Shown one piece after another: positions 4,259 through 20,000 of a stretch of DNA of 20,000 nt. The DNA lies in IMG/VR virus record IMGVR_UViG_3300042346_000126. One strand, given 5' to 3'. A model generated the notes under the pieces. That model saw only the letters and a list, made by a program, of their open reading frames with translations, had not been told where the DNA came from and did not search any database. Positions within the stretch are counted from its first letter, which is position 1; each line of letters starts with the position of its first letter. The position numbers and the translations under genes were made by a program. Source of the stretch: an uncultured virus (IMG/VR IMGVR_UViG_3300042346_000126) (taxonomy: Duplodnaviria; Heunggongvirae; Uroviricota; Caudoviricetes).

Positions 4259-4472
4259 TTGGTATCTCCTTGTACTGTAGTTCTAATATTAGTTGGCAGT
4301 AGTGCAACGCCTTGCGGACATCGGCAGCACCGTTCTTGTTCTTGTGGCGTGTGATGTACTTGACCACGTTGCCTTGCAGGAAGTCCAGTTCATTAGCGTG
4401 AATGAATTCGATGGGTTGAATCTTCATCTTCCGGTAATGGTCGCCGCCTTCTTGAATGTCTAATGCGCTCAT
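4242..4472 (-). CDS. DUF3310 family protein (T7 gp1.7-like putative nucleotide kinase)
   Basis: GGDHY...IQPIEFI...FLQGNVVKYITRHKNKNG..DVRKA.HY signature. Start MSALD at 4472 overlaps the upstream stop (ATGA). Confidence 0.85.
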   Translation of the reverse strand: MSALDIQEGGDHYRKMKIQPIEFIHANELDFLQGNVVKYITRHKNKNGAADVRKALHYCQLILELQYKEIPNGTNS

Positions 4473-4642
4473 TTCCAATCATCTTTCTGTAGTTCGTTAA
4501 CCAGCTTGGCTTCCCTAAGCGCAAGCCGTAATTTGGCGTTCCGCTCCACAACATCTATTAGTTGCTTGTGCAGTGTGTATGCCAGTTTGTTAATTTCTTC
4601 CCGAGTCCACGTTTCAAATGCGGGGGTGTTCTGATCGTGCAT
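4469..4642 (-). CDS. Hypothetical 57-aa coiled-coil protein
   Basis: Manual ORF MHDQNTPAFETWTREEINKLA...KDDWK; GGAG RBS; fills the gap and is coupled to DUF3310. Confidence 0.65.
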   Translation of the reverse strand: MHDQNTPAFETWTREEINKLAYTLHKQLIDVVERNAKLRLALREAKLVNELQKDDWK

Positions 4643-4668
4643 TTACCGTCTCCGTTACAAAGAAAGCG

Positions 4669-5082
4669 CTAATTGTGCCCGCCCGCATACATGCTATACA
4701 GCGCTTTTTGCATTGCCTCCGGGTTAACCCTAGGGTTAACTTCTTCCGCCGCGTCGAGCGCATCACAAATTACACGGGCTTGCAGTGGGTCATAGGTACC
4801 CGCAGTAAGTAGTTGTACGCATGCATCTCGACCCGTCTGCATGGTCCGAATAAGCTCTTCCAGCTTAGTCCCTCGGTCTGTGGTTTCGATGCATGCCGCT
4901 ACGATCATGGGTCCCAGCGTAGCTACGATAGCACCCAGACGTTCCTGATACTCATCCTCAGGAGTCATCATGTACAGTGAAATCTTGGATGTAAGTAAAA
5001 GACTTCTCAACTTCTGCCGTGCAACAGCCCGCGCTATGGGGTTGGTTGCTGTGTCCTTGGTAACCACACGGATGTAAGTCAT
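4669..5082 (-). CDS. Hypothetical protein (137 aa)
   Basis: ORF in operon orientation, ATGA overlap with the upstream gene. Confidence 0.7.
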   Translation of the reverse strand: MTYIRVVTKDTATNPIARAVARQKLRSLLLTSKISLYMMTPEDEYQERLGAIVATLGPMIVAACIETTDRGTKLEELIRTMQTGRDACVQLLTAGTYDPLQARVICDALDAAEEVNPRVNPEAMQKALYSMYAGGHN

Positions 5083-5282
5083 TTTTTTGGGTGCTCAAAA
5101 GTTGGTAGTGGAAACCAGTGCGTGAACCCGTCACCCTTGTGGTGAACTCTGGTGTATGCCACGCCTTGCGCACGCTCTATAAGCTGCATCCGGCAACCGA
5201 TAGGCGTGTTCTTATCAATCGGTATCCACTTCACATCCGGCGCAACCACTGCCGCGCCATCGCTGCTTATCTTGTGAGTCAT
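5079..5282 (-). CDS. Hypothetical phage protein (67 aa; W.PI...P...THW.PLP pattern, DUF551-like)
   Basis: AGGAG RBS, overlapping start/stop junctions, KWIPIDKNTP...FTHWFPLP. Confidence 0.7.
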   Translation of the reverse strand: MTHKISSDGAAVVAPDVKWIPIDKNTPIGCRMQLIERAQGVAYTRVHHKGDGFTHWFPLPTFEHPKK

Positions 5283-5467
5283 GTGTACTCCTTTGGTCGC
5301 CGCACTGACTGCGGTATCGTTTCGTTAGCCGTGACAATCTCTACTGTGTTGTACCGGTGACCACAGGCCGTGCAGAGGTGAACCCGGTAAGTTGTCGCAG
5401 CAGACTTGCGGGACTCGACAATGCGGGTGTCGTCTGTGCTGGTGCAATCGTCGTTTATGCACTGCAT
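5279..5467 (-). CDS. NrdR-like zinc-ribbon protein (62 aa)
   Basis: MQCINDDC...TRIVESR...RVHLCTACGHRYNTVE resembles the N-terminal Zn ribbon of NrdR; GGAGG RBS before ATG 5467. Confidence 0.7.
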   Translation of the reverse strand: MQCINDDCTSTDDTRIVESRKSAATTYRVHLCTACGHRYNTVEIVTANETIPQSVRRPKEYT

Positions 5468-5823
5468 ACCAACCCTCCCCACATACCCGCTTGTTGCCGT
5501 AACTCTGCGTAGGCCCGAGCCTTTGCCTGCACTGCCGCTGCCTTGGCTTCTTTCGCTGCTTTGGCGGCTTCGGCTAACGCACGCTTGCCTCTGGGCTTGC
5601 TTGCTGCGTCGGGCGCATTGCCAAGGGCATAAATGGGTGTGTTGCGACCCGGCCCGTTGCCCGTGAACAGTATCCAATCCATGATGTGGACTTCTCGCTG
5701 TTCGCGCAGGCTTTTAAGCTGTGAGCTAATTGACGGCGGGCTAAGTTCAACGCGTGCGCCAAGTTGCGCTGCTGTCATCGGGCCGTGCCGCGTCAGTGCT
5801 TCCCTGATTGATTGCATGCTCAT
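5455..5823 (-). CDS. Winged-helix HTH DNA-binding protein
   Basis: IREALTRHGPMTAAQLGARVELSPPSISSQLKSL HTH pattern. Confidence 0.7.
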   Translation of the reverse strand: MSMQSIREALTRHGPMTAAQLGARVELSPPSISSQLKSLREQREVHIMDWILFTGNGPGRNTPIYALGNAPDAASKPRGKRALAEAAKAAKEAKAAAVQAKARAYAELRQQAGMWGGLVCSA

Positions 5824-6764
5824 GGCTTTGCTCCTATGCCGTGGTGGGCTTCGATTGCGCGAACAAAGTCAACTACAGTTACTGTATCCAACGCAATTCC
5901 GTAAGACTTATCTGCAAACATTGTTCTAGGCCAGCAGCGCAGAGCATGAATATTTAAAATATCCACCCTATTCAGAGGCTCACGCTTTTCAAGCGCTGCT
6001 ACTTGCTGCGCCTTGTTACCCTCATTGATGAAGGAGACATCAGATTCCAGCATGTCGGCTGCTTCCAAGATTACTTCTTTCGGGCAATATTCGTGATTGA
6101 GTCGAAGGTCTGCAATCAACTCCGCACGCTCACCGGCTGGTGGAGGGGCTGGGTGGGTGAACAGTGGTGTCACTTCGGCGTTGTGGTTTGTGCAGTCATC
6201 TACAAGCTGTCGATCGTCAAGATCGCATACGGCGTATTGATTGTTTGCTTCGGCGACATAGACCATCCACGCCACAGGCTCTACCGCCTGCGCTGGTGGG
6301 GCTGGTGGGGCTGGGTGGGTGTAGAGCTTGGTGCCGACCGGCTGCATTACGTCAAGATAACCAATAGTCACCCCGTTTATGCATTGCACTGTAGCCACAT
6401 GCTCCACCGCCTGCGCTTGCTCGGCTGGTGGGGCTGGGTGGGTGAATAAAGGAATCTCGCTTTCATCGTCTGTTTCGCGCCAATAATCTCCATTGTCCGA
6501 GTCAAAAACAAAATGGAAGTAGCCAAATGGGCGCTGGCATCCGGCCAACGCCTCATGCTCATCGAAGCATTCGGCAGAATGTAGCTTTGGGCTGATACTT
6601 CCACAGTTATGACCCTTGCAAGGCTCCACCTCCTGCGCTTGCTCGGCTTCCAGTGCTTTGCGTAGCTCTGCGATATACACGCTTGTGTGGGGCTGATCTT
6701 TCCAAAGCGGCGAATCCCAGCGGTCTACTACTGCTTGCGCTGCTTGCTGAAGTGGTGTGTTCAT
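5820..6764 (-). CDS. Mosaic multi-module phage protein (Ead/Ea22/DUF551-like style)
   Basis: 314-aa ORF with three AQ(A/E)VE(P/H)...L(F/Y)THPAPP modules. Confidence 0.7.
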   Translation of the reverse strand: MNTPLQQAAQAVVDRWDSPLWKDQPHTSVYIAELRKALEAEQAQEVEPCKGHNCGSISPKLHSAECFDEHEALAGCQRPFGYFHFVFDSDNGDYWRETDDESEIPLFTHPAPPAEQAQAVEHVATVQCINGVTIGYLDVMQPVGTKLYTHPAPPAPPAQAVEPVAWMVYVAEANNQYAVCDLDDRQLVDDCTNHNAEVTPLFTHPAPPPAGERAELIADLRLNHEYCPKEVILEAADMLESDVSFINEGNKAQQVAALEKREPLNRVDILNIHALRCWPRTMFADKSYGIALDTVTVVDFVRAIEAHHGIGAKP

Positions 6765-6964
6765 GATTTCAAGCTCCTGATTTTGTCGGCAATCTGATAG
6801 CCATCGAGTGCATATTTAAACCCGCTTTCAGCGGCCATTGCGGCTTCTTCAAGTGCAGCATCTCGGCAGGCTTGGCCGTAGGCTATCGCCTCATGGTAGT
6901 GAAGGGCGTCAAACCCGCAGGCTTGCTCTAGTGCTTTGTTTCTTGGTAGGGTCGGCAGGCTCAT
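6761..6964 (-). CDS. Hypothetical phage protein (67 aa)
   Basis: MSLPTLP...RDAALEEAA...IADKIRSLK, a pattern common in phage accessory genes; ATGA overlaps on both sides. Confidence 0.65.
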   Translation of the reverse strand: MSLPTLPRNKALEQACGFDALHYHEAIAYGQACRDAALEEAAMAAESGFKYALDGYQIADKIRSLKS

Positions 6965-7113
6965 TGCATCCTCGCTCTCTCGTTGATGCGCCACTTCCAG
7001 TCCCAGTAGGCTAACGCCGGATCGCGTGCTACGCCAAGGCAACCCGCCCCACGGCAAAACCACATTTGGCAACGGTAGAGTGCCGACATTTCTTTGGTTA
7101 TGCGGGGTTTCAT
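6961..7113 (-). CDS. Hypothetical protein (50 aa)
   Basis: MKPRITK...WDWKWR; ATGA overlaps on both sides. Confidence 0.6.
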   Translation of the reverse strand: MKPRITKEMSALYRCQMWFCRGAGCLGVARDPALAYWDWKWRINERARMQ

Positions 7114-7550
7114 TGCACACCCGCCTGACGTAGTGCTGTGATAGCTTTTGATAGAGACTCCATTGCCTTTTGATCGCCATTTCCATACCGATCGCATGTA
7201 GCGTATACGTCTACAGCAGAATCAAGTGCCAGCTTTGCAGCCGCTGCAAGTGCGTCACGCTCTACCGACACACCCGCCTGACTCATTGCCGTATCGACTG
7301 AGGTGTCAACATCTTCACCGTCAGCCCACGCAACCCAATCATCAAGTCCGTCAACATACGTCATCACTGTTGCATCGTTGTGTCTACTGGATCGCAGCCA
7401 GCGATACCGAGATGCGTCGGCTGCGAGGGCGTCACGCTCTTTTTTGAGCGCTTCGATGTGCAGCAGTTGCAGCAACACGCCGCAGCGCAATTGCGCAATG
7501 TCAAGCTTGTCAACATCGGCGCGGGCTTGTTCTATTTCTTGTTCTGTCAT
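7110..7550 (-). CDS. Ead/Ea22-like hypothetical phage protein
   Basis: ERDALAADASRYRWLR motif typical of this group; GGAG RBS. Confidence 0.7.
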   Translation of the reverse strand: MTEQEIEQARADVDKLDIAQLRCGVLLQLLHIEALKKERDALAADASRYRWLRSSRHNDATVMTYVDGLDDWVAWADGEDVDTSVDTAMSQAGVSVERDALAAAAKLALDSAVDVYATCDRYGNGDQKAMESLSKAITALRQAGVQ

Positions 7551-7575
7551 TTAGTTATCTCCATTACTTGTTTAT

Positions 7576-7740
7576 CTACAACTCACCTCGAAGCAGGGCT
7601 TCGGCGTCTTCCCGTGCCCGCTTGGCCTTATACTCTCGGCGCTCTTCTGGGGTGCCGTCTGCAACTTCCGCAAGAACTGCCGTAAGCCAGCAGCCCGCAA
7701 CAACGCCTAGGATAAGCATCACCCAGTAGCCGGGGCTCAT
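7576..7740 (-). CDS. Small putative membrane protein (54 aa)
   Basis: Manual ORF MSPGYWVMLILGVVAGCWLTAVLAEV...RGEL with a hydrophobic N-terminus; ATGA overlap with the upstream gene. Confidence 0.6.
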   Translation of the reverse strand: MSPGYWVMLILGVVAGCWLTAVLAEVADGTPEERREYKAKRAREDAEALLRGEL

Positions 7741-7919
7741 GTCGGGTATCCTTTGGACTTGTACTTGAGGAAGTCCAGTGACCCGGGGCGGGCTGGGATA
7801 ATTTGGTCCCCATCACCCGTTCTATATGTTGTGGCCTTGTAGTTACTCTTTGGCGGAGTCGCCTCGTTAGGGCGTTTGACCCGTGGGGCGTATGCTTCTG
7901 TCGTGGCAGTCTTGGTCAT
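7737..7919 (-). CDS. Hypothetical protein (60 aa)
   Basis: GGAG RBS, ATGA overlaps on both sides. Confidence 0.65.
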   Translation of the reverse strand: MTKTATTEAYAPRVKRPNEATPPKSNYKATTYRTGDGDQIIPARPGSLDFLKYKSKGYPT

Positions 7920-8434
7920 TTCAATACTCCGGGGTATGAGGAATTGAGGAATGCTTCATGTTCATCTAATATTAGTTCGAGGTTAGGTGGCGTCCAGCCC
8001 TCGGGTTTCAGAATTTTGCCATCCTCACGGCGAGTTACCTTGCCAGTAACCGGGTCTACCTTAGCGAAGTTAGAACGAACAACCTCTGCCCACCCCTCCT
8101 CCATAGGCCAGCCAAACGATAACCCTAGCCCGATCAGCACGACGATGGAGTCCAACACGGCATCAAAAGCTTCTACCTCATCACCCGCCTCAAGTGCCGC
8201 GCCAAGTTCGTTTAACTCTTCGCGTACCAGATCAAGGTACAGGTTAGCCTGAGCCGCATTTTCTGTGGCGGTTGTTTGTCCGCAAGCCTGCATAAATGCC
8301 GCTTGGTCTTGGAACACAGACCCTTTATATTGCTGCATATCCAGTCGTTCCGCCAGAGCACTAGCAAGCCCCTGCACATTTTGATTATCTGCCTCGCGGA
8401 TAAGTTCTTCATTTGATAAGTTGTCGTAGATCAT
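7916..8434 (-). CDS. MazG-like / PRA-PH family NTP pyrophosphohydrolase
   Basis: LVREELNEL...EAFDAVLD...WAEVVRSNFAK...REDGKILKPEGW matches the DR2231-type all-alpha NTP-PPase pattern. Confidence 0.85.
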   Translation of the reverse strand: MIYDNLSNEELIREADNQNVQGLASALAERLDMQQYKGSVFQDQAAFMQACGQTTATENAAQANLYLDLVREELNELGAALEAGDEVEAFDAVLDSIVVLIGLGLSFGWPMEEGWAEVVRSNFAKVDPVTGKVTRREDGKILKPEGWTPPNLELILDEHEAFLNSSYPGVLK

Positions 8435-8436
8435 AG

Positions 8437-8778
8437 TTACTCTTTTGTGAAGTCGATAAAGTCAATTAACGTCTGGTTTGCGTCGGTACGAAACCAGACG
8501 ATGCAAGTCGGCGGCGCTACCGGGGGGCGCTGTAACTGCCCCCCAATAGTAGCCAGATTTATGATGGCTGAAAGCCAGTCGGGGCGGTTTTGCAACTCTC
8601 CTTCTAAGTTCTTCTCTTTGCCTGCGTCGCTCCATGTGCGCAGGGTATATAAGCCTCCTCGCTCCTCATAACGGTTCGAGCAGTATCCATCTTCAGGGGG
8701 CATATAAAAAGCCTTTACTTGGTATAGGGCGTCTAGGCGTTTAACTCTGGGCCAGTCAGCAAGCGTCTGCGTCTGCAT
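8437..8778 (-). CDS. Hypothetical protein (113 aa)
   Basis: Start MQTQTL at 8778 after GGGGAG; operon orientation. Confidence 0.65.
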   Translation of the reverse strand: MQTQTLADWPRVKRLDALYQVKAFYMPPEDGYCSNRYEERGGLYTLRTWSDAGKEKNLEGELQNRPDWLSAIINLATIGGQLQRPPVAPPTCIVWFRTDANQTLIDFIDFTKE

Positions 8779-9658
8779 CTTCCACTCCCCAGTCGAAGGC
8801 GTCCAAGATAGCGTCCACCTTGCGTTTAGTCTCAATGCGAGTGCTGTCCTCTGTACGTAGTTCTTTGGGAGTAACACCTGTCATGGCATCCAACAGCTTG
8901 CTACGCGCCCGCTCCAGATCAGGGTCAGCCGTGACGTTCAGGGCGTCCAGCAACTCGCACAATTCCTCTGCATTGGACACGAGGGTATCGTGGAACTTAC
9001 GCTTGGTACCGTCCTCCTCAATGACGAGTCGCTCACTGAGATTGGACAATACCTTATGCAGCCGGGTCCATGAGTCTTGAGTAGACTGCGCAAGCAATGC
9101 CTTGGACTTAGCCTCATACTGCGTAATGAGTTGCTGTTGTACCTCGCTTTCGATGTCCACCCGGAAGTCACCTGCAATAGGCAGGGGGCTGAACGAAGTC
9201 TCAATCGCAAACTTACGGGCAATCTGACTGCCGGGCAGGTACTCATCACGGTCGAACAACGTACCCAGTTGAAACGCAGCCGCCGCCACGAGGGTGTCAT
9301 ACTTGACTACGAACTTGTCCACGAGGAACTCGAACTCAGTCTTGCACTTGCCCATAGCCCCTTGGTACTCCAGCAGCAGCTTGGTAGGCAGCAGGCGCTG
9401 GCCGTTATCTGCCCACGGCTTAGTCAGGCGGTAGTGCTCGGCACGTATGCGGGCTTGGTACTTGGTGATGTCGTCTAGCTCCTTGCAGTCAGCGAACAGC
9501 GATTTATACACAGACGCGGCACGCTTAGAGCCTGAACCCTTGGCCGTGGTAACTTCCGCTTGTGTCTTGCGGTCTTGCTTACGGCCTGAGTAAACTTTGA
9601 TGTTCAGGTCTACTAACATAGCAGCCCGTGCGATTCCGGCGATTGTTGTGATGCTCAT
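8756..9658 (-). CDS. Conserved helical phage protein (DUF3150-like, tentative)
   Basis: 300-aa ORF, AAGGA RBS; resembles proteins usually encoded beside phage AAA/VWA pairs. Family name is from memory. Confidence 0.6.
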   Translation of the reverse strand: MSITTIAGIARAAMLVDLNIKVYSGRKQDRKTQAEVTTAKGSGSKRAASVYKSLFADCKELDDITKYQARIRAEHYRLTKPWADNGQRLLPTKLLLEYQGAMGKCKTEFEFLVDKFVVKYDTLVAAAAFQLGTLFDRDEYLPGSQIARKFAIETSFSPLPIAGDFRVDIESEVQQQLITQYEAKSKALLAQSTQDSWTRLHKVLSNLSERLVIEEDGTKRKFHDTLVSNAEELCELLDALNVTADPDLERARSKLLDAMTGVTPKELRTEDSTRIETKRKVDAILDAFDWGVEDADADAC

Positions 9659-9684
9659 TTGATTTCCTTGGTTGGTAACTAATA

Positions 9685-10158
9685 TTAGATTGCGTTGCTT
9701 ACAGATGGCTTACTAAAAACAATAGCTGCGGGTAGCAGCAGAACGGCGGGGTGATGACCGCTAGCGGCCACTAGCCGAACGGCATCGGGGGGCATATCCA
9801 GAAATACTGCGCAGTCATCCCACGCTACGAGCGCCGCTATAGCGTACCGTGCAGCGCCCCGTGCAGCGCCCCGTGCAGCGCCCCGTGCAGCGCCCCGTGC
9901 AGCGCCCCGTGCATCGTCCCGTGCATCGTCCCATGCAGCGTCCCGTGCAGCGTCCCGTGCAGCGCCCCGTGCAGCGCCCCGTGCAGCGGTCCATGCAGCG
10001 TACCATGCAGCGTCCCATGCAGCGTCCCGTGCAGCGTTCCATGCAGCGCCCCGTGCAGCGCCCCGTGCAGTGTGCCATAGCTCCGGGGTAGCCGCTAGTG
10101 AGGCCAGCACCCGGTCGATGTGCGCGGCGTTGGGTAAGTGTGCCCATGCGGTAGTCAT
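9685..10158 (-). CDS. AAxx-repeat protein, paralog 1 (19 tetrapeptide units)
   Basis: Conserved ends AWAHLPNA.HIDRVL and AWDDCAVFLDMPP around a 12-bp repeat array; stop codon inside the palindrome. Confidence 0.85.
   Translation of the reverse strand: MTTAWAHLPNAAHIDRVLASLAATPELWHTARGAARGAAWNAARDAAWDAAWYAAWTAARGAARGAARDAARDAAWDDARDDARGAARGAARGAARGAARGAARYAIAALVAWDDCAVFLDMPPDAVRLVAASGHHPAVLLLPAAIVFSKPSVSNAI
9844..10071. repeat. 12-bp tandem repeat array, 19 units
   Basis: + strand consensus gtcccgtgcagc / gccccgtgcagc. Confidence 0.95.
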
Positions 10159-10197
10159 TTTTTGGCAGCGTCCGCTAGTTGTTTGATGCTGCCAAGG

Positions 10198-10788
10198 TTA
10201 GCCATTAGTTTCATAATCTTCCTCTGTTTCAAAGGTTACGTCGTTGGCTGCGCAATGCTCGATGTATGCTTCTTCGCTAGTCAGGTAGTCTTCTTCGTTG
10301 CGCAGCATCGTGTGCAACTCGTTACCTAAGTCGTTGCAGTACTTTTGTATGGCGGCTTCCAAGTCGGCCTCTGCTTCTTGGCTCTCGATAAGCTCCTCCC
10401 ACGTAGCTTGGTCCAGCCCCGAGAACATACCGGAAGGTGCAGTTTGGTTAACGTAGGAGTCATACGACACGCTCATATTGGAGTTGCGGGTAACCGACAC
10501 CTTAGCCCTACCCCCATCATCTACAACCCCGAGATACAGCGCCGGGTACTTCTCTGCTAGTCCCGAACGCTCCATGAATACCGCGACGTTTACCCAGCCT
10601 TCAAACCCTGCCGATCCGGGGATACTGAACGCAGTGTCCACTACCTCTACCCCTTTCGGGGCGCAGTCTTCTGTAAACATCTCCACCGTATAGTCCCACC
10701 ATCCGTAGTCCAGCACGTGCGCTGCCCATTTGAGGTATGCTTTGGTGAACCGCTTGGGGTCCGCGATCTTTAGTTCTGCTGCGTTCAT
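10198..10788 (-). CDS. Hypothetical acidic phage protein (196 aa)
   Basis: AGGAG RBS, operon orientation, DYGWWD and DYLTSEEA motifs. Confidence 0.75.
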   Translation of the reverse strand: MNAAELKIADPKRFTKAYLKWAAHVLDYGWWDYTVEMFTEDCAPKGVEVVDTAFSIPGSAGFEGWVNVAVFMERSGLAEKYPALYLGVVDDGGRAKVSVTRNSNMSVSYDSYVNQTAPSGMFSGLDQATWEELIESQEAEADLEAAIQKYCNDLGNELHTMLRNEEDYLTSEEAYIEHCAANDVTFETEEDYETNG

Positions 10789-10789
10789 A

Positions 10790-11950
10790 TCAATCTCCTA
10801 AGTGAATAGTCGTGCCGTATGGCGAACTAAGATTAGATGTGAGTGCCCACAGCGTAGGCCATGAGCTATTGCCGAAGCTACCTACGTAGCCATCACTGAA
10901 CTGAATGATGGCGTCAGGGGATATCTGCTTGTCACGCAGGTAATCAAACAGAACGGAACCGTCTGTACCGCCACCCCCACGGGGCTTGAGGCTCTGTACC
11001 GCGAACAGCCCGTCCTCGAACACCTGCTCGCCACGTACCTCGGTATCCCAGTAGATAATGCGACACTTGCTAGGCTTGACGTCCTCGATGATGACCTTGA
11101 TCTCGGACACGAACCTTGCCATATCTGCGCCACCGAAGCACGAGCCAGAGGTGTCGAACCCCACCACGAGTTCTCGCATGGTATTACTCATCATGCTAGG
11201 CATATACACATCATCGCCTATGTACCTGCGGTTGGGCTTGCGCCATGTGGACTCGTCGCGCCCCGCACAGGTCTCGGTTATGAAGTCGCGCAGCACCTTG
11301 CGCCAGTCAACCACAGGCGTCAGCAAGTCACCGAATACCCCGGACTGTCCCTTGCTACCCTTGCCTTGCATCTTGCTGCGCATGATCTCGCCCTGACGCA
11401 TAGCCCGGTCGATCTCCTTGCCTTGGGCCTCTTGCTCGGCTTCGCTGGGGGCACTGCCGGACTCCCAATCATGCTCGTCCATACCGCTACCCTCGCCGCT
11501 GCCCTCGTCCTTGGGTGGAGGGTCTTGCTTGAGCTTGTCGAAGATCATCGCCACGGACATACCACGGTACTGCGGGTCAGGCTGTACGCCTACCTTGGGC
11601 ATCGTAATGAACCCCTCGCCAGCATCCAAGTCAACCAGTGACAGGTTATTGAAGTGGTCAGCCGCAATATTCGCAAGCCGGGCGTCGATAGCCCACAGGC
11701 TTTTCCATACGTGCAAGTGCCTATAGGCAACGTGTGTGGCTTCATGAAGAACTAAGAACCGAAGCTCTGAGTCCTTGAGCCCGTCAACAAACGTAGGGTT
11801 GTACATCCGATTCCAGCCGTCCGTACAGGCAGTGGGTATGTCCTCGGTCACGGTCACTTTGCCGCAGGCCAGCAGGCCGGAGAATACGCAGAACTTCTTG
11901 TGTTGCATTATTGCAACGTGGGCTTTCTTGATACGATCTGAACTGTTCAT
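10790..11950 (-). CDS. DUF2201-type putative metallopeptidase with C-terminal VWA-like domain
   Basis: TACTDG, HEATH (HExxH), DTSGS MIDAS, GGGGTD, FSDGY. Confidence 0.9.
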   Translation of the reverse strand: MNSSDRIKKAHVAIMQHKKFCVFSGLLACGKVTVTEDIPTACTDGWNRMYNPTFVDGLKDSELRFLVLHEATHVAYRHLHVWKSLWAIDARLANIAADHFNNLSLVDLDAGEGFITMPKVGVQPDPQYRGMSVAMIFDKLKQDPPPKDEGSGEGSGMDEHDWESGSAPSEAEQEAQGKEIDRAMRQGEIMRSKMQGKGSKGQSGVFGDLLTPVVDWRKVLRDFITETCAGRDESTWRKPNRRYIGDDVYMPSMMSNTMRELVVGFDTSGSCFGGADMARFVSEIKVIIEDVKPSKCRIIYWDTEVRGEQVFEDGLFAVQSLKPRGGGGTDGSVLFDYLRDKQISPDAIIQFSDGYVGSFGNSSWPTLWALTSNLSSPYGTTIHLGD

Positions 11951-11980
11951 GGTGTTTCCTTAGGTTGTGTGTAACTAATA

Positions 11981-12406
11981 TTAGATGGAGGGATTGAAAA
12001 CAATAGCTGCGGGTAGCAGCAGAACGGCGGGTTGATGACCGCTAGCGGCCACTAGCCGAACGGCATCGGGGGGCATATCCAGAAATACTGCGCAGTCGTC
12101 CCACGCTATGAGCGCAGCTAAAGCGCCCCATGCAGCGCCCCGTGCAGCGTCCCGTGCAGCGCCCCGTGCAGCGTCCCGAACAGCGTCCCGAACAGCGTCC
12201 CATGCAGCGTCCCGTGCAGCGCCCCGTGCAGCGTTGTATGCAGCGTTTTGTGCAGCGTTTTGTGCAGCGTACTGTGCAGTGTCCCGTGCAGCGGTCCATA
12301 GCTCCGGGGTAGTCGTTAGTGAGGTTAGCACCCGGTCGATGTGCGCGGCGTTAGGTAAGTGTGCCCATGCGGTAGGCATGATTGCGTTTTTAATCATAGT
12401 AGTCAT
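11981..12406 (-). CDS. AAxx-repeat protein, paralog 2 (14 units)
   Basis: Same conserved ends; AGGAG RBS and ATGA coupling; stop codon inside the palindrome. Confidence 0.85.
   Translation of the reverse strand: MTTMIKNAIMPTAWAHLPNAAHIDRVLTSLTTTPELWTAARDTAQYAAQNAAQNAAYNAARGAARDAAWDAVRDAVRDAARGAARDAARGAAWGALAALIAWDDCAVFLDMPPDAVRLVAASGHQPAVLLLPAAIVFNPSI
12125..12292. repeat. 12-bp tandem repeat array, 14 units
   Basis: Direct reading of the sequence. Confidence 0.95.
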
Positions 12407-12567
12407 TTCTTGCTCCTTAGTAATACTGACTGCAATTTGTAGGCATCCCTTGACGGGATGTTGGTTTGGCCTCGGGGGACGTAGGCTTTGCTGATTCGGT
12501 CAGGTGACCAATCCCTGTGCAGGGTGACTACGACTTGGCCGTTTGATGTGCGTTCTGTAACTAGCAT
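12403..12567 (-). CDS. Hypothetical protein (54 aa)
   Basis: Manual ORF MLVTERTSNGQVVVTLHRDW...LLRSKK after an AGGA RBS; stop overlaps the paralog 2 start. Confidence 0.65.
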   Translation of the reverse strand: MLVTERTSNGQVVVTLHRDWSPDRISKAYVPRGQTNIPSRDAYKLQSVLLRSKK

Positions 12568-12589
12568 GATGATTCCTATCTAATATTAG

Positions 12590-13645
12590 TTAGAAGAACT
12601 TACCGAGAGCAGCAGCCATCACCGTGAATGGGCGGCAACTGCATGCCATGCCTACCTTGGCCTTGTTGCTTGCCAGTGTGGTAGCGAACAGCGCCTTGGC
12701 CTCGAACGAATCGAAGCGATTGACGTACGTAATGATCGCGCCCAGCGTGTCTTCCTTGGCACGAGCGGCCAGACTGAAGGCCATCAAAAAATAACTTCCA
12801 GCGCCCTCAGGCAGCCGCGCCTTGTCGGGATCAGCGACGATACTTGCGAAGCTAGTCATGCCATCGGCCAGATGCACAAGGGCCTCGAGGTCACGGGCAG
12901 CAGACTCGCCCAGAGTACCGATCAGAGCGGGCAGCAGGGCACTACCTAACGAACTACGCTGCTTGATAAGGTTACTGGCTTTCTCCATAGACCTAGGGGA
13001 ACAGAATGCCTTGGTGTTGCCCGTCAACGGGCTGAAGATGTATGGGTTTTTCTCGGCCTTGTCGATCAGGTCGTACCGCTCGAACACCTGAGGGAAGTCA
13101 CGGGCAAAGGCCATAACCTCCGGCGCTACGTCATTGTTAGCCGCCCAGCCAAGCCACTCGTCAACCGTAGGGTTAGCCACATCCAGCACAGTCATGCGGT
13201 TATGGGCATGCGCCGGGATGTTGTCGCCCACACCGTCAGTCGCAAGGTTAGTCGTGCCGAATACGATGCTGCCCACTGGCAGGTGAACGTCGCCCAGCCT
13301 ATGCTCAAGGATAACGGGCAGCAGCATATTGATGATAGGCCGCGCACCCTTGCCCAACTCGTCAAGCATCAGCAGCACCGGGCGATCTTGACCCTTGCCG
13401 ATACCGAACCTAGCATTTGGGGCGTAGTTGGTAACCATATGGTCACGGTCGATGACCGGCATACCGAGGTCACCGAGGTCAAGGTTAGCCACGTCGATGT
13501 AGCACGCCTGATAGTCAGGCATCTCACGGGCCAGCATACCGAGGAGGGCTGACTTGCCTACGCCGGGCTGCCCTTGCAGCAGAAAGGTATTGGTAGTGCC
13601 GCAGGTACGGATGAGAGTCGAAGCTTGATTGAGAGTAACTTGCAT
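12590..13645 (-). CDS. AAA+ ATPase (MoxR/dynein-related type)
   Basis: Walker A GQPGVGKS, Walker B LLMLDE, sensor GTTN, SPRS motif. Confidence 0.92.
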   Translation of the reverse strand: MQVTLNQASTLIRTCGTTNTFLLQGQPGVGKSALLGMLAREMPDYQACYIDVANLDLGDLGMPVIDRDHMVTNYAPNARFGIGKGQDRPVLLMLDELGKGARPIINMLLPVILEHRLGDVHLPVGSIVFGTTNLATDGVGDNIPAHAHNRMTVLDVANPTVDEWLGWAANNDVAPEVMAFARDFPQVFERYDLIDKAEKNPYIFSPLTGNTKAFCSPRSMEKASNLIKQRSSLGSALLPALIGTLGESAARDLEALVHLADGMTSFASIVADPDKARLPEGAGSYFLMAFSLAARAKEDTLGAIITYVNRFDSFEAKALFATTLASNKAKVGMACSCRPFTVMAAALGKFF

Positions 13646-13669
13646 GATATTTCCTTGAGGTAACTAATA

Positions 13670-14056
13670 TTAGATGGAGGGATTGAAAATAATAGCTGCG
13701 GGTAGCAGCAGAACGGCGGGTTGATGACCGCTAGCGGCCACTAGCCGAACGGCATCGGGGGGCATATCCAGAAATACTGCGCAGTCGTCCCACGCTATGA
13801 GCGCAGCTATAGCGTCCCATGCAGCGTACCGTGAAGCGCCCCGTGCAGCGTCCCATGCAGCGCCCCGTGCATCGTCCCGTGCAGCGCCCCGTGCAGCGTC
13901 CCGTGTAGCGTCCCGTGTAGCGTCGTATGCAGCGTCCCATGCAGCGTCCCGTGCAGCGTCCCGTGTAGCGGTCCATAGCTCCGGGGTAGCCGCTAGTGAG
14001 GCCAGCACCCGGTCGATGTGCGTAGCGTTAGGTAAGTGTGCCCATGCGGTAGCCAT
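13670..14056 (-). CDS. AAxx-repeat protein, paralog 3 (13 units)
   Basis: True start MATAW at 14056 after the AAGGA RBS; repeat array 13814-13969. Confidence 0.85.
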   Translation of the reverse strand: MATAWAHLPNATHIDRVLASLAATPELWTATRDAARDAAWDAAYDATRDATRDAARGAARDDARGAAWDAARGASRYAAWDAIAALIAWDDCAVFLDMPPDAVRLVAASGHQPAVLLLPAAIIFNPSI

Positions 14057-14081
14057 GATGATTTCCTTGAGGTAACTAATA

Positions 14082-14492
14082 TTAGATGGAGGGATTGAAA
14101 ACAATAGCTGCGGGTATCAGCAGAACGGCGGGTTGATGACCGCTAGCGGCCACTAGCCGAACGGCATCGGGGGGCATATCCAGAAATACTGCGCAGTCGT
14201 CCCACGCTACGAGCGCCGCTATAGCGCCCCGTGCAGCGCCCCGTGCAGCGTCCCGTGCAGCGTACCGTGAAGCGCCCCGTGCAGCGTCCCATGCAGCGCC
14301 CCATGCAGCGAGCCATGCAGTGCGCCATGCAGCGTCCCGTGCAGCGTCCCGTGCAGCGTCCCGTGCAGCGTCCCGTGTAGCGTCCCGTGTAGCGTCCCAT
14401 GCAGCGTCCCATAGCTCCGGGGTAGCCGCTAGTGAGGCCAGCACCCGGTCGATGTGCGCGGCGTTAGGTAAGTGTGCCCATGCGGTAGTCAT
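14082..14492 (-). CDS. AAxx-repeat protein, paralog 4 (15 units)
   Basis: AGGA RBS; repeat array 14226-14405. Confidence 0.85.
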   Translation of the reverse strand: MTTAWAHLPNAAHIDRVLASLAATPELWDAAWDATRDATRDAARDAARDAARDAAWRTAWLAAWGAAWDAARGASRYAARDAARGAARGAIAALVAWDDCAVFLDMPPDAVRLVAASGHQPAVLLIPAAIVFNPSI

Positions 14493-14517
14493 GATGATTT
14501 CCTAGAGGTAACTAATA

Positions 14518-14880
14518 TTAGATGGATGGATTAAAAACAATAGCTGCGGGTAGCAGCAGAAAGGCGGGGTGATGACCGCTAGCGGCCACTAGCCGAACGG
14601 CCTCGGGGGGCATATCCAGAAATACTGCGCAGTCGTCCCACGCTACGAGCGCAGCTATAGCGCCCCGTGCAGCGCCCCGTGCAGCGTCCCGTGCAGCGTC
14701 CCGTGCAGCGAGCCAGGCAGCGTACCGTGAAGCGCCCCATGCAGCGAGCCATGCAGCGCGCCATGCAGCGTCCCGTGCAGCGTCCCGTGCAGCGGTCCAT
14801 AGCTCCGGAGTAGCCGTTAGTGAGGCCAGTACCCTGTCGATGTGCGTAGCGTTAGGTAAGTGTGCCCATGCGGTAGCCAT
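14518..14880 (-). CDS. AAxx-repeat protein, paralog 5 (11 units)
   Basis: True start MATAW at 14880 after the AAGGA RBS; repeat array 14662-14793. Confidence 0.85.
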   Translation of the reverse strand: MATAWAHLPNATHIDRVLASLTATPELWTAARDAARDAAWRAAWLAAWGASRYAAWLAARDAARDAARGAARGAIAALVAWDDCAVFLDMPPEAVRLVAASGHHPAFLLLPAAIVFNPSI

Positions 14881-14905
14881 GATGATTTCCTTGAGGTAAC
14901 TAATA

Positions 14906-15667
14906 TTAGATGGAGGTGACCGTGGTTGCAGTGGTCTCATACATACGAGACTTGCAGGCTTTCATAATCGCAGCCCAGCAGGACTTGGCATCGCCGCGTT
15001 CCATGCAGAACCGTGTCTGCGTCTTGTAGTCATACTGCATCTCAAACTTGAAATACTCGATGATCTCCGGCCAGCTAGGGGCAAGGTGCGCTGTGGTGAA
15101 CGTCTCTAACAAATGGTAGTGGTTGGGCACGTGGGTTATCCCACTGTCCGGGGCCTTGCATGAGGCATACAGCAAGGGGAACATAGCCTTGAACCCTGAC
15201 GCCTTGATATCGTCAGCGAACTCTTTGGACTCTTGCTTGTTGATACCGTACCGCTCGAACGTCACCAGCGGGGTAGTCAGCGTACCGTCAGCGTCGAACT
15301 TCATACCGTCGTAATACCTGACGACCCGCCCATCCTTGAGCGATATGCACAACTGAGACGTACCAAATACGCGTCTGCTATAGACGTAACGCCCCGCCAG
15401 TGGCGTAAACCGCAGTGCTACCCACACTGCTTTCTTGGTTGTTGGGGAGCCGTGCCAACCCGCCGTGTCCAGCATGAACGTCCCATCCTCATAAGCCTGC
15501 AGGATAGCCGTGTTGTGCATGATGACCGCCATGTGGTCGCTCTGCTGTACTACGCGGTGAGTACAGCGACCCCTGCGGCTACCCTCTACCGGCGCATCGC
15601 CCTTGTGGGCACCCTTGGTATATACATGCTTGTTCATGTGCATCGACAATGCCGTAAACGTATTCAT
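14906..15667 (-). CDS. Hypothetical phage protein (253 aa)
   Basis: Long ORF, first gene after the promoter/leader; stop codon inside the palindrome. Confidence 0.8.
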   Translation of the reverse strand: MNTFTALSMHMNKHVYTKGAHKGDAPVEGSRRGRCTHRVVQQSDHMAVIMHNTAILQAYEDGTFMLDTAGWHGSPTTKKAVWVALRFTPLAGRYVYSRRVFGTSQLCISLKDGRVVRYYDGMKFDADGTLTTPLVTFERYGINKQESKEFADDIKASGFKAMFPLLYASCKAPDSGITHVPNHYHLLETFTTAHLAPSWPEIIEYFKFEMQYDYKTQTRFCMERGDAKSCWAAIMKACKSRMYETTATTVTSI

Positions 15668-16154
15668 AATAATTCCATTAAGTTAGATAGAGTAACTAAT
15701 CTTAGTTACCCAGTGGAGCATCCACTACATAGGACACGATGTGTGCCCTACATGCTAGGCGCTCTAGCACGGGCGGTTAGGCCCGTCAGAATCTTTGGTT
15801 TGTATGCTTCATTGGTACGATAGAGAGTGTCGGCGTGGCTTATCCCAGCGGTGCTGGTTCCACGTCCCTAGGGCTCATGCAGGTTTTCCCTGAGCGGAGC
15901 CCACCCATTTAAGTACCTATCGTTTACATTGCACTGTGCTGTTACCACACATATGCAGGGGCTATACCCTACGCTTACTCGCCAAGGGAGACTCGCACTA
16001 GGCGAATCTTTAGGCTTCTGGATTGAACCAGCAGCAGCTTGCTTGCCCTCCCAACTAATATTAGTTGGGTAGACTTACGTCAGATTGTTAATGATGTGGC
16101 CCTAGGGGAATATGGTGCCTAACAACTCGAAGCGATCCTCAAGTCGATAAGTCG

Positions 16155-16183
16155 ATTGTATCATACTCTTGACCGCGTGTCAA
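16155..16183 (-). promoter_or_regulatory. Sigma70-like promoter
   Basis: TTGACA-N17-TACAAT with TGn extended -10, just downstream of a terminator. Confidence 0.75.
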
Positions 16184-16208
16184 GCTATTTCGGGGTAGTT
16201 GGGGGTTG

Positions 16209-16229
16209 AAAAAGCCCCGTTTCCGGGGC
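16209..16229 (-). terminator. Intrinsic terminator
   Basis: GCCCCGG-aaa-CGGGGC-TTTTT immediately after the stop of 16238..17056. Confidence 0.85.
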
Positions 16230-16237
16230 CGTGGGTG

Positions 16238-17056
16238 TCATAGTTGCGGACGTAAATCCCGGTAAAACTCATATATCCGGCGTAGTTCGTCCACCGTGGC
16301 GTCATTCTTTATCCGATTTGCCCGTTGCGATATCATGACTACATTTCCCTTTACGTAGCCCAGGTTAGAGTCAATCCGATCAAGCGACATAGCGTTATCG
16401 GCGGCGCCTCGGCTACCAGTTCCATAATTTAGCGGTATGCCTAGCACGGGGCAAGTTTCTGGCAGGGGGTATAGGTCGGAGATAGTCAGGTCAAAGTCTA
16501 CCCCTACCCGCTTCGCATTGTTACGTTTGTGCGTAATACGCTGCGTCAGCAGTAGCCGAAGCTCTGGGTTCTCCGCAATGGCTGCATGGTCTGCACCATA
16601 TTTAGATAGCTTCGCTGTGGCAAATGCCTCGGCCCGCGCCTCCATGCGCTCCGCCTTAGCGGACACTACCATACCGTGTCTAGCTAGCTTATCCACGATC
16701 TGTTTTATGCGCTGCCGACTAAGCCCATACCCAGCCCCAATGTCTGCATACACCCCGCCAGATTTCAGCTTTTCGTATATCTCTAGGTCTCTGGGTTTTA
16801 GCTTGTGTACCTTAGCGTTTGCGTTGTAGGCGTTATCCAGCCATTGGGCATCTTGCGTTTGGATAGCCTTGATAAGAATCTTGGGGTTGTACATCGTACC
16901 CGCAATGCGGTAATAGCTCTTACCGTTCATCTGAGCTACCGCCACAGGATCGCCGATTGTGTAACGCATATGAGCAACCCGTTTGGTATAGACGAGCACC
17001 CCGTCTTGAATAGCCAATATTGAAAGGAGCGTAGCGCCCGGAAGTCGTACTGCCAT
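16238..17056 (-). CDS. HTH plus HNH-like endonuclease domain protein
   Basis: YADIGAGYGLSRQRIKQIV (sigma70 region 4-like HTH); CPVLGIPL...SLDRIDSNLGYVKGNVVMISQRANRIKN (HNH-like). Confidence 0.8.
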   Translation of the reverse strand: MAVRLPGATLLSILAIQDGVLVYTKRVAHMRYTIGDPVAVAQMNGKSYYRIAGTMYNPKILIKAIQTQDAQWLDNAYNANAKVHKLKPRDLEIYEKLKSGGVYADIGAGYGLSRQRIKQIVDKLARHGMVVSAKAERMEARAEAFATAKLSKYGADHAAIAENPELRLLLTQRITHKRNNAKRVGVDFDLTISDLYPLPETCPVLGIPLNYGTGSRGAADNAMSLDRIDSNLGYVKGNVVMISQRANRIKNDATVDELRRIYEFYRDLRPQL

Positions 17057-17082
17057 GATAACCCTTTATAAAATGTAAAGGT

Positions 17083-17110
17083 ATTATACGAAGTGATTAC
17101 GTTTTGTCAA
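17083..17110 (-). promoter_or_regulatory. Consensus sigma70 promoter
   Basis: TTGACA-N16-TATAAT; perfect palindrome at 17115-17128 just upstream of the -35. Confidence 0.85.
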
Positions 17111-17132
17111 CGATAACTAATATTAGTTGTGT

Positions 17133-17153
17133 AAAAAGCCCCGTTTCCGGGGC
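17133..17153 (-). terminator. Intrinsic terminator (identical to 16209-16229)
   Basis: aaaaagccccgtttccggggc on the + strand. Confidence 0.85.
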
Positions 17154-17226
17154 TCGGGCTCCCCACCGTAGGTGGGGCTCTGGCTCGTCCAGCTTAGCGG
17201 CGGGCTATCCGATCATAGTTGTGGCA

Positions 17227-18036
17227 TTACAGTCCACGGCCTGCCTTATCGCTGAGCCGCACTATTGTCAGTACCCCAGTGCCGCGCTCAGAACTGCTAG
17301 TAAACCTCTTCCCTACCCGTGCGGCATACACATGCACCGCAGTCTGCGCCCGCTTAGCAAGTAACGCAGGGATACGCACAACGTCGCCGGGCTGCATATC
17401 TTTGAACGGCCACTTAGTACGCTCTGCCTGTGCCCTGTGGCTAGGGTGCATACGCTCCAACCGCTCCAGCATAGCCGCGCCACCCGGTATGATCTGCATG
17501 AACGGGGACTCTTGCACGGATACCGTAGGGGCCTCAACGATATCGGCAATCCGGGTCTCATGGTCTTGGTTGCGCTTAGAGGCCATCGCAGTGGCTACCC
17601 GGCTAGCCCGCAGGTCCATAAGCAAGGGAGTTACGTTGGTCGCCTTGGCAATGATGAGGTTCAGCGACTTGGCCTTATCCATCAAGACTTGCAGCGCCGT
17701 AGAGGACCCCGCCTGTGCAGCTAGGGTGTGCATATCCACGCCAAGCCCTGCGCTAACTAATATTAGTTGCTCCACGGGTGTGAACGCGATAAAGGCAGCA
17801 GGGGAGGGTAGCGCCGCAGGGAGGGGGGAATCGAACGTATCCGCAGCAGACAGCAGGCCCGCCAAGATGGGGGCCACCTCGTAGAACTCAGGGTCCTCAG
17901 GCGTGCCGACCATAAAGAAGTGCGTCCCGGCCTCAGTGCAGAGCCGCAGGCTAGTGAACGGCAGGTCCTCCGCAGGGGAGAACATGACCGTATCGTGTTG
18001 GGCGTTGATAGCGAAATTGGCAAAAGAGTAGAGCAT
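17227..18036 (-). CDS. Hypothetical protein with a small C-terminal putative DNA-binding domain
   Basis: 269-aa ORF; C-terminal KWPFKDMQPGD...KRF...IVRL resembles a widespread small phage domain (function inferred). Confidence 0.65.
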   Translation of the reverse strand: MLYSFANFAINAQHDTVMFSPAEDLPFTSLRLCTEAGTHFFMVGTPEDPEFYEVAPILAGLLSAADTFDSPLPAALPSPAAFIAFTPVEQLILVSAGLGVDMHTLAAQAGSSTALQVLMDKAKSLNLIIAKATNVTPLLMDLRASRVATAMASKRNQDHETRIADIVEAPTVSVQESPFMQIIPGGAAMLERLERMHPSHRAQAERTKWPFKDMQPGDVVRIPALLAKRAQTAVHVYAARVGKRFTSSSERGTGVLTIVRLSDKAGRGL

Positions 18037-18780
18037 GGCTAGGTAAAGTAGGTAATGTGGTTGAGGGAACTGAAGTGTATCACGATATGTGACCGATTGA
18101 ATTGTACCACGACTTCAGAGAGGATTGTCACTAGGATACCAATAAGCTTAGTCCTACTCGTTATGTAACTTTCAATGTAGAAACGTAACACGTAACTATT
18201 CGGGCTTACTTAGAAATGCCTTATAAATCAACGACTTGCAAGGGGGTAAAACGGTGTATGTATGTGAAGCTGCAAAGCGGTACGGCGTAACTTTTTCTGC
18301 CGGAGAGAGCTCCTGAGCGAGGTCTGAACATGGAATGTGTATTCAAATAACTAGTTTTGGAGAACTCGTGGTGCCCCGGAACTCGTGCAATTCCTATGGT
18401 TTTTTTTGTAGGGTACAGGCAGCACACAACAACAATACAATCTTATTTATTATTATTATTAGGGGTTTCTTGGTTTTTGTAACGCCTTTTCCTGCCGTTT
18501 TCCCCCCTTTTGTGCTGCTAGTAGCCGTGAATACCGTAGGTTGTAAGCGATATACCGTTCATGTAAGGAACTTCACGGTCAATTATCTCTAGCATTACAA
18601 AAGTAGATAATTGTAAGTTACAGAGGCTTACCGGTATAAATGGTCTATTTGGATACTCTCTCTTACCTATCACCCGTCCGCGCTAGCCTTTTCGTAGCGG
18701 TTACTACATTGTTCTGTCAACTAATATTAGTTGGACTCTTACCGCCACACGTCGTACACTCAACTAATATTAGTTCCCCG

Positions 18781-18813
18781 CTCACTCACTCACTCACTCA
18801 CTCACTCACTCAC
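18781..18813. repeat. (CTCA)8 microsatellite
   Basis: ctcactcactcactcactcactcactcactcac. Confidence 0.95.
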
Positions 18814-18850
18814 CTTGGCTACTATGACCAAGCCTGAAAAGTACAGGCGT

Positions 18851-18871
18851 AAAAAAACCGCCTTGCGGCGG
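18851..18871 (-). terminator. Intrinsic terminator
   Basis: CCGCC-gcaa-GGCGG-TTTTTTT after the stop at 18892. Confidence 0.85.
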
Positions 18872-18891
18872 CTGGTTGGGTAGAACTAATA

Positions 18892-19098
18892 TTAGTTGAA
18901 CCCTACTCTTGTGTCGTACATATCAGGCAACTCACTACCGTCTAACCATACCTTGCGGGTTACGGCGTCGTCCAGCCACGTCTCAAGCGCTTCACGCGTG
19001 GGCATTGAACCCACTGTCAGAACCGCGTCGCCATCCATCACCACGCCATCCCACTGCCCGGATGTTTTCTCAATCATAAGAGTTCTAATATTGGCCAT
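18892..19098 (-). CDS. Hypothetical protein (68 aa)
   Basis: Start MANIRT at 19098; stop codon inside the palindrome; followed by a terminator. Confidence 0.7.
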   Translation of the reverse strand: MANIRTLMIEKTSGQWDGVVMDGDAVLTVGSMPTREALETWLDDAVTRKVWLDGSELPDMYDTRVGFN

Positions 19099-19165
19099 TT
19101 GATTTTCTCTGTTACGTGCAAAGGCGCACTGCAAACCCCTGCAATCAGGGGTTCAGGGTAAACCC

Positions 19166-19693
19166 CTAGACCTTGAATGCTGGATCAATCACGCATGCCG
19201 CATCGATCAGGATGGATTTAATCTCCAACTGGTTAAGCAGCACCGCCTGCTCGATCGCTTTGCGAATGGTGTCCAGCAATGCCTTGTTATCCGTTGTACT
19301 TACTTTGCCCACACGAGCCTTCCCGCCTTTGGCTGCACCCTTAGACCAGGGGAGTGCTGGGAGTCCGCCTTTCTCTTCGCTCAAGAATGCGCTTGCATAC
19401 CATGCGACATCATGATAGTAGGCACGCATGGCGGACTGCGCGTAATTCGTTACGGTATTCTTTTCAATTAGACCTACCGCAACAGCATCAATGAATACTT
19501 GGCACGTGCGCACTTCCTCGCCAATAGACTTCACGCCTTCCTCATCACGTGTAACTCCGGCCACTGTGCATGCGTCCATATATTGGGCGAATGCTTGAGC
19601 TACGATGTCGCGGGCCTTACCGGCAGCCTTATCGGCTGCGGTTGTAGCGGTAATGATAGTGGAACCGAATGCGTTGAATGAAACTGTAGACAT
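19166..19693 (-). CDS. Hypothetical early protein (175 aa)
   Basis: AGGAG RBS before ATG 19693; promoter upstream. Confidence 0.8.
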   Translation of the reverse strand: MSTVSFNAFGSTIITATTAADKAAGKARDIVAQAFAQYMDACTVAGVTRDEEGVKSIGEEVRTCQVFIDAVAVGLIEKNTVTNYAQSAMRAYYHDVAWYASAFLSEEKGGLPALPWSKGAAKGGKARVGKVSTTDNKALLDTIRKAIEQAVLLNQLEIKSILIDAACVIDPAFKV

Positions 19694-19751
19694 GTGATAA
19701 CTCCTATGTAGGTAGTAGGTATGAAACAACCCTTAAACAACCGACACCCAT

Positions 19752-19780
19752 AATGTAACCCAAGTCCTATACATTGTCAA
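19752..19780 (-). promoter_or_regulatory. Sigma70-like promoter
   Basis: TTGACA-N17-TACATT; palindrome about 25 bp upstream (19805-19814). Confidence 0.65.
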
Positions 19781-20000
19781 GTTGCCTAGCTGGTCAAGCG
19801 TGAACTAATATTAGGTGGAATCGCGACCCCACCGTACCCCGGGGACCCTTTTGAGGGTTTGGAGTCCCCCCGCACAAATACACTGAGCGCAACACTCGCA
19901 GCTACTTCGCCACCTCACAACTAGACACTGCTCCGCGTGACTAGACAAAGATAAATATTCCCGATGTCCGAATTCGGACATTGCCCCACAGAAAGACCCC

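Follow-up and report, generated by a model that had tools for sequence, protein, structure and literature searches.

Can a tandem array of phage genes divided by one short repeat be built by general recombination, or does it call for a dedicated cassette system? The question arises from a 20,000-nucleotide stretch of an uncultured caudovirus (IMG/VR record IMGVR_UViG_3300042346_000126), hereafter the window, in which an earlier note had read such an array as an integron-like system of excisable gene cassettes. Integrons are defined by the integrase IntI, the attI site and attC sites, and hold tandem promoterless single-gene cassettes. The window represents the early and replication arm of the genome, with all genes on the minus strand, including those for a family A polymerase, a PD-(D/E)XK exonuclease, a VRR-NUC protein, a MazG-like protein, an AAA ATPase, a DUF2201 vWA/metallopeptidase protein and HNH proteins. 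Complete relatives measure 62–68 kb; their other arm encodes the terminase, the portal and the major head protein. The best-matching read run is a lake metagenome.

The array contains four minus-strand copies of a 32-bp repeat, three identical to the 32-mer and one (14497–14528) with two differences. In the direction of transcription, the upstream flank is a conserved 253-aa early gene with no family assigned (14906–15667), whose end lies in junction repeat 1 (14885–14916) together with a palindrome (14898–14911) and a ribosome-binding site (RBS). Three tetrapeptide-repeat paralogs follow: paralog 1 (120 aa; 14518–14880), junction repeat 2 (14497–14528), paralog 2 (136 aa; 14082–14492), junction repeat 3 (14061–14092) and paralog 3 (128 aa; 13670–14056). 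Junction repeat 4 (13649–13680) holds the RBS of the downstream flank, an AAA/MoxR-like ATPase gene (12590–13645; PF00004, phrog_1297). All of these features lie on the minus strand. The repeats are spaced 388, 436 and 412 bp apart in transcription order, corresponding to gene-plus-junction units, and the units differ from one another at many positions and in the order of their internal repeats. The stop codons of all three paralogs and of the 253-aa gene fall within the palindrome, and the next start codon lies 16–17 bp beyond it. The repeats, paralogs and spacing given in the earlier note were thus all recovered, as was its view that each repeat supplies the upstream stop, the palindrome and the next RBS. 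Its inventory was incomplete, as the window holds 14 further palindrome copies and two further paralogs.

To compare alleles, we searched with the ATPase and obtained 26 viral and 48 metagenome loci, of which seven distinct ones are at least 85% identical (L145 and L192 duplicate L002 and were not counted). The same protein retrieved no close cultured relative, with best matches below 30% identity. The array site is empty in three of the seven (L001, L002 and L004), junction repeat 1 being the sole copy there. Three others carry one paralog (L144, 120 aa; L147, 132 aa; L148, 104 aa), although these are short contigs and their one-copy alleles could be collapsed arrays. In the seventh, L146, a 212-aa HNH gene flanked by two palindromes occupies the site. 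Direct joining of the 253-aa gene to the ATPase gene and the presence of different cargo had both been predicted, and the series of empty, one-copy, three-copy and other-cargo alleles upholds this main prediction. Along with the L146 HNH insertion, the ATPase gene has diverged in its 5′ half (L146 4275–6001), as homing-endonuclease co-conversion would leave. A palindrome also lies on the ATPase stop codon (12578–12591), and an inserted gene takes its place in two relatives, HNH-like in L144 (4431–5211) and 79 aa long in L146 (6001–6240).

The same gene family appears elsewhere in the window. Paralog 4 (11981–12379, minus strand) precedes the DUF2201 metallopeptidase/vWA gene (10790–11950, minus strand; palindrome 10825–10838 inside its 3′ end). 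It stops in a palindrome (11973–11986) that contains its stop codon, and its left palindrome is missing. This vWA site is empty in L001, L004 and L144, while in L002 and L146 it holds a paralog preceded by a palindrome. Paralog 5 (157 aa; 9685–10158, minus strand) likewise ends with its stop codon inside a palindrome (9677–9690) and has none on its left. This third site is occupied in the window, L002 and L004 and empty in L001, without palindrome duplication. Occurrence at three separate junctions means that there is no single insertion point. The tetrapeptide-repeat gene is mobile and fast-varying, with zero, one or three copies at the array junction and a presence at two others.

The encoded proteins consist of Ala-Ala-(Arg/Trp)-x units, specified by a 12-bp repeat, between fixed ends; the five short paralogs of the window have ~11–19 repeats each. 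They form a large viral family (1209 matches among 8000 candidates). In a structural model (pLDDT 89.9, pTM 0.42), a single long helix accounts for most of the protein; we found no significant viral fold match for it and, in the Atlas, only unnamed viral clusters. PHROG matches are weak and limited to the repeat region (phrog_8332, 3416 and 18326), and tblastn against a collection of phage sequences, run with low-complexity filtering, returned no match. Tandem arrays without dyads, joined by overlapping stop and start codons, occur in G026 (3 copies), G027 (2 and at least 3), L195 (6), L203 (4) and L206 (2). Six bases are common to both L002 copies and absent from all five window copies, though two of the positions are orthologous. 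In these six columns, copies within a genome are therefore closer than copies at the same site across genomes, which points to exchange through the gene bodies. Another gene of the window (5820–6764, 314 aa) contains three internal proline-rich repeated segments.

The repeat array is not a product of chance. With up to two mismatches allowed, the window contains 18 copies of its 14-bp core palindrome, of which 6 are perfect and 16 have at most one mismatch, against no match in 30 order-2 Markov simulations at the same threshold. The 14 copies beyond the array span 4281–19816, and roughly half of the junctions between early genes carry a palindrome. Eleven of the 18 copies end 10–44 bp ahead of a start codon. 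The one at 15694–15707 lies 26 bp ahead of the start of the 253-aa gene. Four lie within coding sequences, in rare codons (codon-frequency products 4e-5 to 3e-4), at positions retained in L001, L002 and L004; rare codons mark the copies in the DUF3310 gene (4281–4294) and the MazG-like gene (7964–7977), and a perfect copy sits in the 269-aa gene (17755–17768). L002 and L004 also have a palindrome inside the polymerase gene. The window's own polymerase gene (2133–3968) is ~42% identical to that of L004, with neighbours at 75–84%, and appears to be a swapped allele.

Two copies adjoin −35 boxes. The perfect palindrome at 17115–17128 lies 4 bp upstream of the −35 box of a promoter with a 12/12 consensus match (17110–17083), and the copy at 19803–19816 lies 22 bp upstream of that of the first early promoter (19780–19752). 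Another perfect copy (16053–16066) is located ~90 bp downstream of a sigma-70-like promoter (16183–16155), and three more (starting at 18719, 18762 and 18884; 18719–18897) fall in the early non-coding region, where a 4-bp microsatellite of eight copies (18781–18813) stands immediately upstream of a palindrome. Two long non-coding stretches (15700–16200 and 18040–18900) contain palindromes and promoters and may represent an origin or small RNAs; an Rfam search that included them gave no match. Within the four junction repeats themselves, we found neither promoter-like nor terminator-like sites. Folding is negligible, with a hairpin energy of −0.9 kcal/mol for the window palindrome, 0 for the G005 site, and −0.9 to −2.7 kcal/mol for the 32–36-bp junction repeats that include the 14-bp dyad. 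Searching viral contigs for the perfect palindrome by itself turned up 117 scattered stretches, all single-site among the 80 listed; this result was discarded.

One of the palindromes belongs to a gene that varies between relatives. A 272-aa HNH gene with an N-terminal Mor-like helix–turn–helix (HTH) domain (16229–17155) is framed by a terminator-like hairpin present in two copies and comes with a palindrome and a consensus promoter of its own; L001, L002, L004, L144 and L146 lack the gene. In read runs X1 and X3, a contig ending at 16229 resumes, by eye, near 17155, and X1 seemingly contains both alleles.

Dyads of this kind extend across the phage family. All 16 sites of G002 lie in ~21 kb of its 63.5 kb and 14 of the 15 sites of G003 in 18 kb, in each case in the early and replication arm, leaving none or one in the structural arm. 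Five complete relatives show this confinement, bar the one G003 site. The motif itself differs: G004 has a 15-bp dyad in 14 copies, and G005 and G006 a 20-bp dyad with 13 matches each, two of them overlapping, all at the same junctions as the window palindrome. Among 61 loci retrieved with the vWA protein, a redundant set with some short or distant members, 44 carry at least four copies of one dyad, compared with at most two in 25 simulations. More than ten motif types occur, and the sites number 12–18 per genome or window. In L024, the dyad is doubled at every site, the two copies 12 bp apart, and in L247 (10377–10553; G029), a 55-bp tandem repeat of the early non-coding region holds four copies of that phage's own dyad.

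The dyads are perfect or near-perfect, with strand bias solely at the central bases of the 20-bp type, and between lineages they change symmetrically on both arms; two symmetric positions, for example, distinguish the L007 dyad from those of L008 and L025. Symmetric changes together with negligible folding energy favour a dimer on double-stranded DNA over an RNA function. We infer that the dyads are binding sites of a dimeric protein and that the site drifts between lineages.

We considered several proteins as the putative binder. The first early gene (19166–19693, minus strand; 175 aa, no known family) is a candidate, present in the majority of lineages (16 of 24 records) with a dyad just upstream of its promoter. 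Its product has no PDB, Pfam or PHROG match and no fold recognisable from sequence. It differs between L007 and L008, yet also between the window and L002, which share a dyad. The 269-aa protein was rejected because it is absent from the complete genomes G031 and G032, whose dyad core is identical. Its C-terminal domain gave weak Alba/IF3-like matches (Z ≤ 5.6) and no Foldseek match at E 0.001, its Atlas scores are 0.84–0.85, and its gene slot is taken by a Mor-like HTH protein in many lineages. An XRE protein sits ahead of the primase in most genomes. The case for the XRE and Mor-like proteins as specificity factors is weakened, as both are near-identical in L007 and L008/L025 while the dyads differ. 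A general, not family-specific, scan of 51 G002 proteins showed no ParA or ParB.

The breakpoints indicate how the joints were made. Relative to the empty alleles, the duplicated stretch measures 37–39 bp for the paralog (two sites) and 13 bp for the L146 HNH gene, whose insertion duplicates exactly 13 bp of the palindrome. Insertions behind the ATPase gene also break at the palindrome. The paralog has no stop codon of its own; its reading frame continues into the target sequence and terminates within the palindrome, giving a tail that depends on the site. At the L002 vWA site, both flanking copies have that site's own spacer before the RBS, indicating that the flanks derive from the target by duplication, unlike attC sites, which are carried by the cassette. 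At the L146 vWA site, the left flank has the spacer of the third site and is thus a hybrid of two different sites, so junctions also exchange among themselves. Junction repeat 2 of the window is a comparable hybrid of the two repeats of a one-copy allele: it joins the 5′ half of the right repeat of L144 to the 3′ half of its left repeat, which places the crossover between units 1 and 2 within 19 bp containing the palindrome. This is not proof of site specificity, because a one-copy allele has no other flanking homology. Other changes do not keep to the palindrome. Losses of the NinX-like gene, the 93-aa gene and, in L001, paralog 5 have one or both ends off it, changes in the interval from the MazG-like to the DUF3310 gene have one or both ends outside any palindrome, and many differences fall in a palindrome-poor stretch. 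The breakpoint list covers six sequences, mixes true indels with divergent stretches and carries no statistical test.

The earlier note had suggested a search for a recombinase. Tyrosine (PF00589) and serine (PF00239) recombinases were found in none of 13 complete relatives (controls 14 of 14 and positive, respectively), and PF07508 in none of five. RecT, ERF and Rad52/22 annealing proteins were absent from five genomes with positive controls, a result that counts against the short-homology reading as well. No IntI tyrosine recombinase is present among the 32 window proteins, and we found no attC-type hairpin. These results agree with the earlier statement that this is not a classical integron, and on the features of its sequence we conclude that the array is not an integron. 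The proposal of a capture and accordion system held in part: the alleles and the 19-bp crossover support a short-homology accordion. Its other part, a dedicated cassette system, did not, given 18 palindromes across the arm with four in genes, no recombinase of the families searched, duplicated lengths that vary (13 and 37–39 bp), off-palindrome losses and palindrome-free arrays elsewhere. A diversity-generating retroelement was also dropped, as it is the number and order of the repeats that vary, with changes not confined to adenines, and no reverse transcriptase was present among the 51 G002 proteins scanned.

The reading we prefer, at a probability of about 0.6, is an operator- or stoperator-like dyad network whose palindrome-plus-RBS joints provide short homology for gene gain and for accordion-like amplification. 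The lineage-specific, A/T-rich dyad, which is scattered over the early and replication genes and in most cases separates a stop codon from the following RBS, would be bound by a dimeric protein of the phage that controls early and middle transcription. A tetrapeptide-repeat gene would enter once, by template switching or staggered short-homology exchange, with duplication of ~36 bp of the junction (palindrome and RBS). The two junction copies would then be the only flanking homology, and an out-of-register crossover there would yield a second copy. From that point, the gene bodies and the 12-bp repeats could undergo unequal crossover and gene conversion, which would expand, shrink and reshuffle the array, with stop codon and RBS staying intact throughout. 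General recombination, and no dedicated recombinase, would do the work. Against this reading, the 13-bp HNH duplication and the palindrome breaks behind the ATPase gene resemble the outcome that an active site would give.

Those features would be better accommodated if the palindrome were a protein-recognised joint of dual use, which regulates the early arm and also actively focuses recombination and gene capture through a bound protein, a nick or a fork block, without a classical recombinase. We regard this as possible but doubtful. Besides the exact duplication in L146, it could account for the unit 1/2 crossover inside the 19-bp stretch, for inserted genes that often end at the palindrome's stop codon, and for the similar anatomy in L197, a distant phage in which one copy of the gene has independently come to lie between two copies of that phage's own dyad and RBS; the last of these counts against our preferred reading. 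However, with palindromes at about half of the early junctions, gene-sized changes land there anyway, several losses have off-palindrome ends, many changes fall where palindromes are scarce, and the unit 1/2 crossover had no alternative homology to use. A still stronger claim, that an unrecognised phage recombinase or a host Xer-type enzyme moves circular cassettes at the palindrome in the manner of an integron, would explain the preserved reading frames of the empty, one-copy and other-cargo alleles and the hybrid left junction at the L146 vWA site. We consider it unlikely: the searches for tyrosine and serine recombinases were negative, sites within conserved genes would be destructive substrates, duplicated lengths vary and dyad-free arrays exist. 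Compared with loxP- or dif-type sites, a fully symmetric 14-bp site would moreover offer no directional spacer.

Two further explanations bear on the dyad and on the array separately, and both fare poorly. The position of 11 of the 18 copies shortly before start codons could suit an RNA element, either a processing site or an A/U-rich translation enhancer ahead of the RBS, but the low folding energy, the copies upstream of promoters and deep within genes, and the symmetric two-arm changes between lineages make this improbable. The triplication might instead be an assembly artefact of one variable gene, in that short-read contigs break over the array and no piece spans all of it. Yet the units diverge at many positions and arrange their repeats differently, a run X1 contig with zero differences spans 14459–14592 and crosses junction 2 with its private variants, and the empty and one-copy alleles are independent of the window assembly; we therefore hold an artefact to be very improbable. 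Run X1 is nearly identical to the window and possibly its source sample, so its contig is not an independent check of the assembly. Its read depth is higher over the shared repeat segments and was left out as a measure of copy number, and runs with a small share were left out of the read-run comparison.

Among known systems, the array has something of the integron, with promoterless single-gene tandem units, each with an RBS, between repeats; it differs in the absence of a detected IntI and of attC-type hairpins, in its several insertion points and in its target-derived flanks. Excerpts from PMC2839356 and PMC4122927 describe the PeSL of T4-type phages as a repeated regulatory element between non-essential genes that provides homology for their gain, loss and replacement, and those from PMC2839356 also liken PeSL cassettes to integrons, with no integrase identified there. 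Gene gain, loss and replacement between element copies in close relatives is what we see here. The PeSL, however, comprises a promoter and a terminator stem-loop, whereas the window repeat combines a 14-bp dyad with an RBS and contains neither of the two, and the window dyad also occurs inside genes and varies in sequence by lineage. Excerpts from PMC3029335 mention boundary sequences. The T4 counter-defence segment dmd-tifA is amplified between 6–10-bp microhomologies (excerpts from PMC9391042); tandem amplification, short-homology bounds and one homology copy between units are shared features, but the T4 homologies arise by chance and give identical laboratory copies in the account excerpted, while the window has a regulatory-type repeat and diverged, mosaic natural copies. 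The nearest match for the array is PeSL-type shuffling at a recurring regulatory element, combined with tifA-type amplification; its outcome is somewhat integron-like.

For the dyads themselves, the stoperators of Cluster A mycobacteriophages offer the nearest parallel, with many copies of a short site along an arm, few at promoters, and a lineage-specific motif (excerpts from PMC6550527). The window sites are likewise many, mostly off promoters and different by lineage. Cluster A sites, according to the same excerpts, are 13 bp long, oriented and bound by a known repressor in temperate phages; those of the window are symmetric dyads, no integrase was found in the relatives searched, and some dyads double as gene-exchange joints. 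The cargo recalls gp54 of mycobacteriophage Tweety, in which repeat number tunes counter-defence and which, in excerpts from PMC9262239 and PMC2884959, has fixed ends and a 12-bp Ala-Ala-x-x repeat, varies in repeat number and at the two final residues, and is dispensable in relatives. Tweety gp54 is a single gene of 15–48 repeats and the window has five short paralogs of ~11–19; the likeness is drawn as an analogy and not as homology. By analogy only, the cargo may have a tunable counter-defence role, which would be the likely selective driver of the array. A literature search of main texts, with limited journal coverage, found no account of these dyads, arrays or anatomy.

The natural series of alleles with zero, one or three copies or other cargo presents gene gain and amplification at regulatory joints that leave stop codons and RBSs unbroken, and in an apparently lytic phage it illustrates the 'linker' idea of modular phage evolution. 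If the palindrome did prove to be a joint of dual use, each lineage's own dyad would serve as an address channelling accessory-gene exchange among phages with the same motif, and the exchanged genes would include arrays of tunable tetrapeptide-repeat counter-defence genes. On the reading we prefer, an operator-like network diversifies by lineage across a large family of uncultured freshwater phages in which no integrase was found, raising the question of what is repressed and whether competing phages are excluded. The widespread, multi-copy tetrapeptide-repeat family is a candidate for tunable counter-defence.
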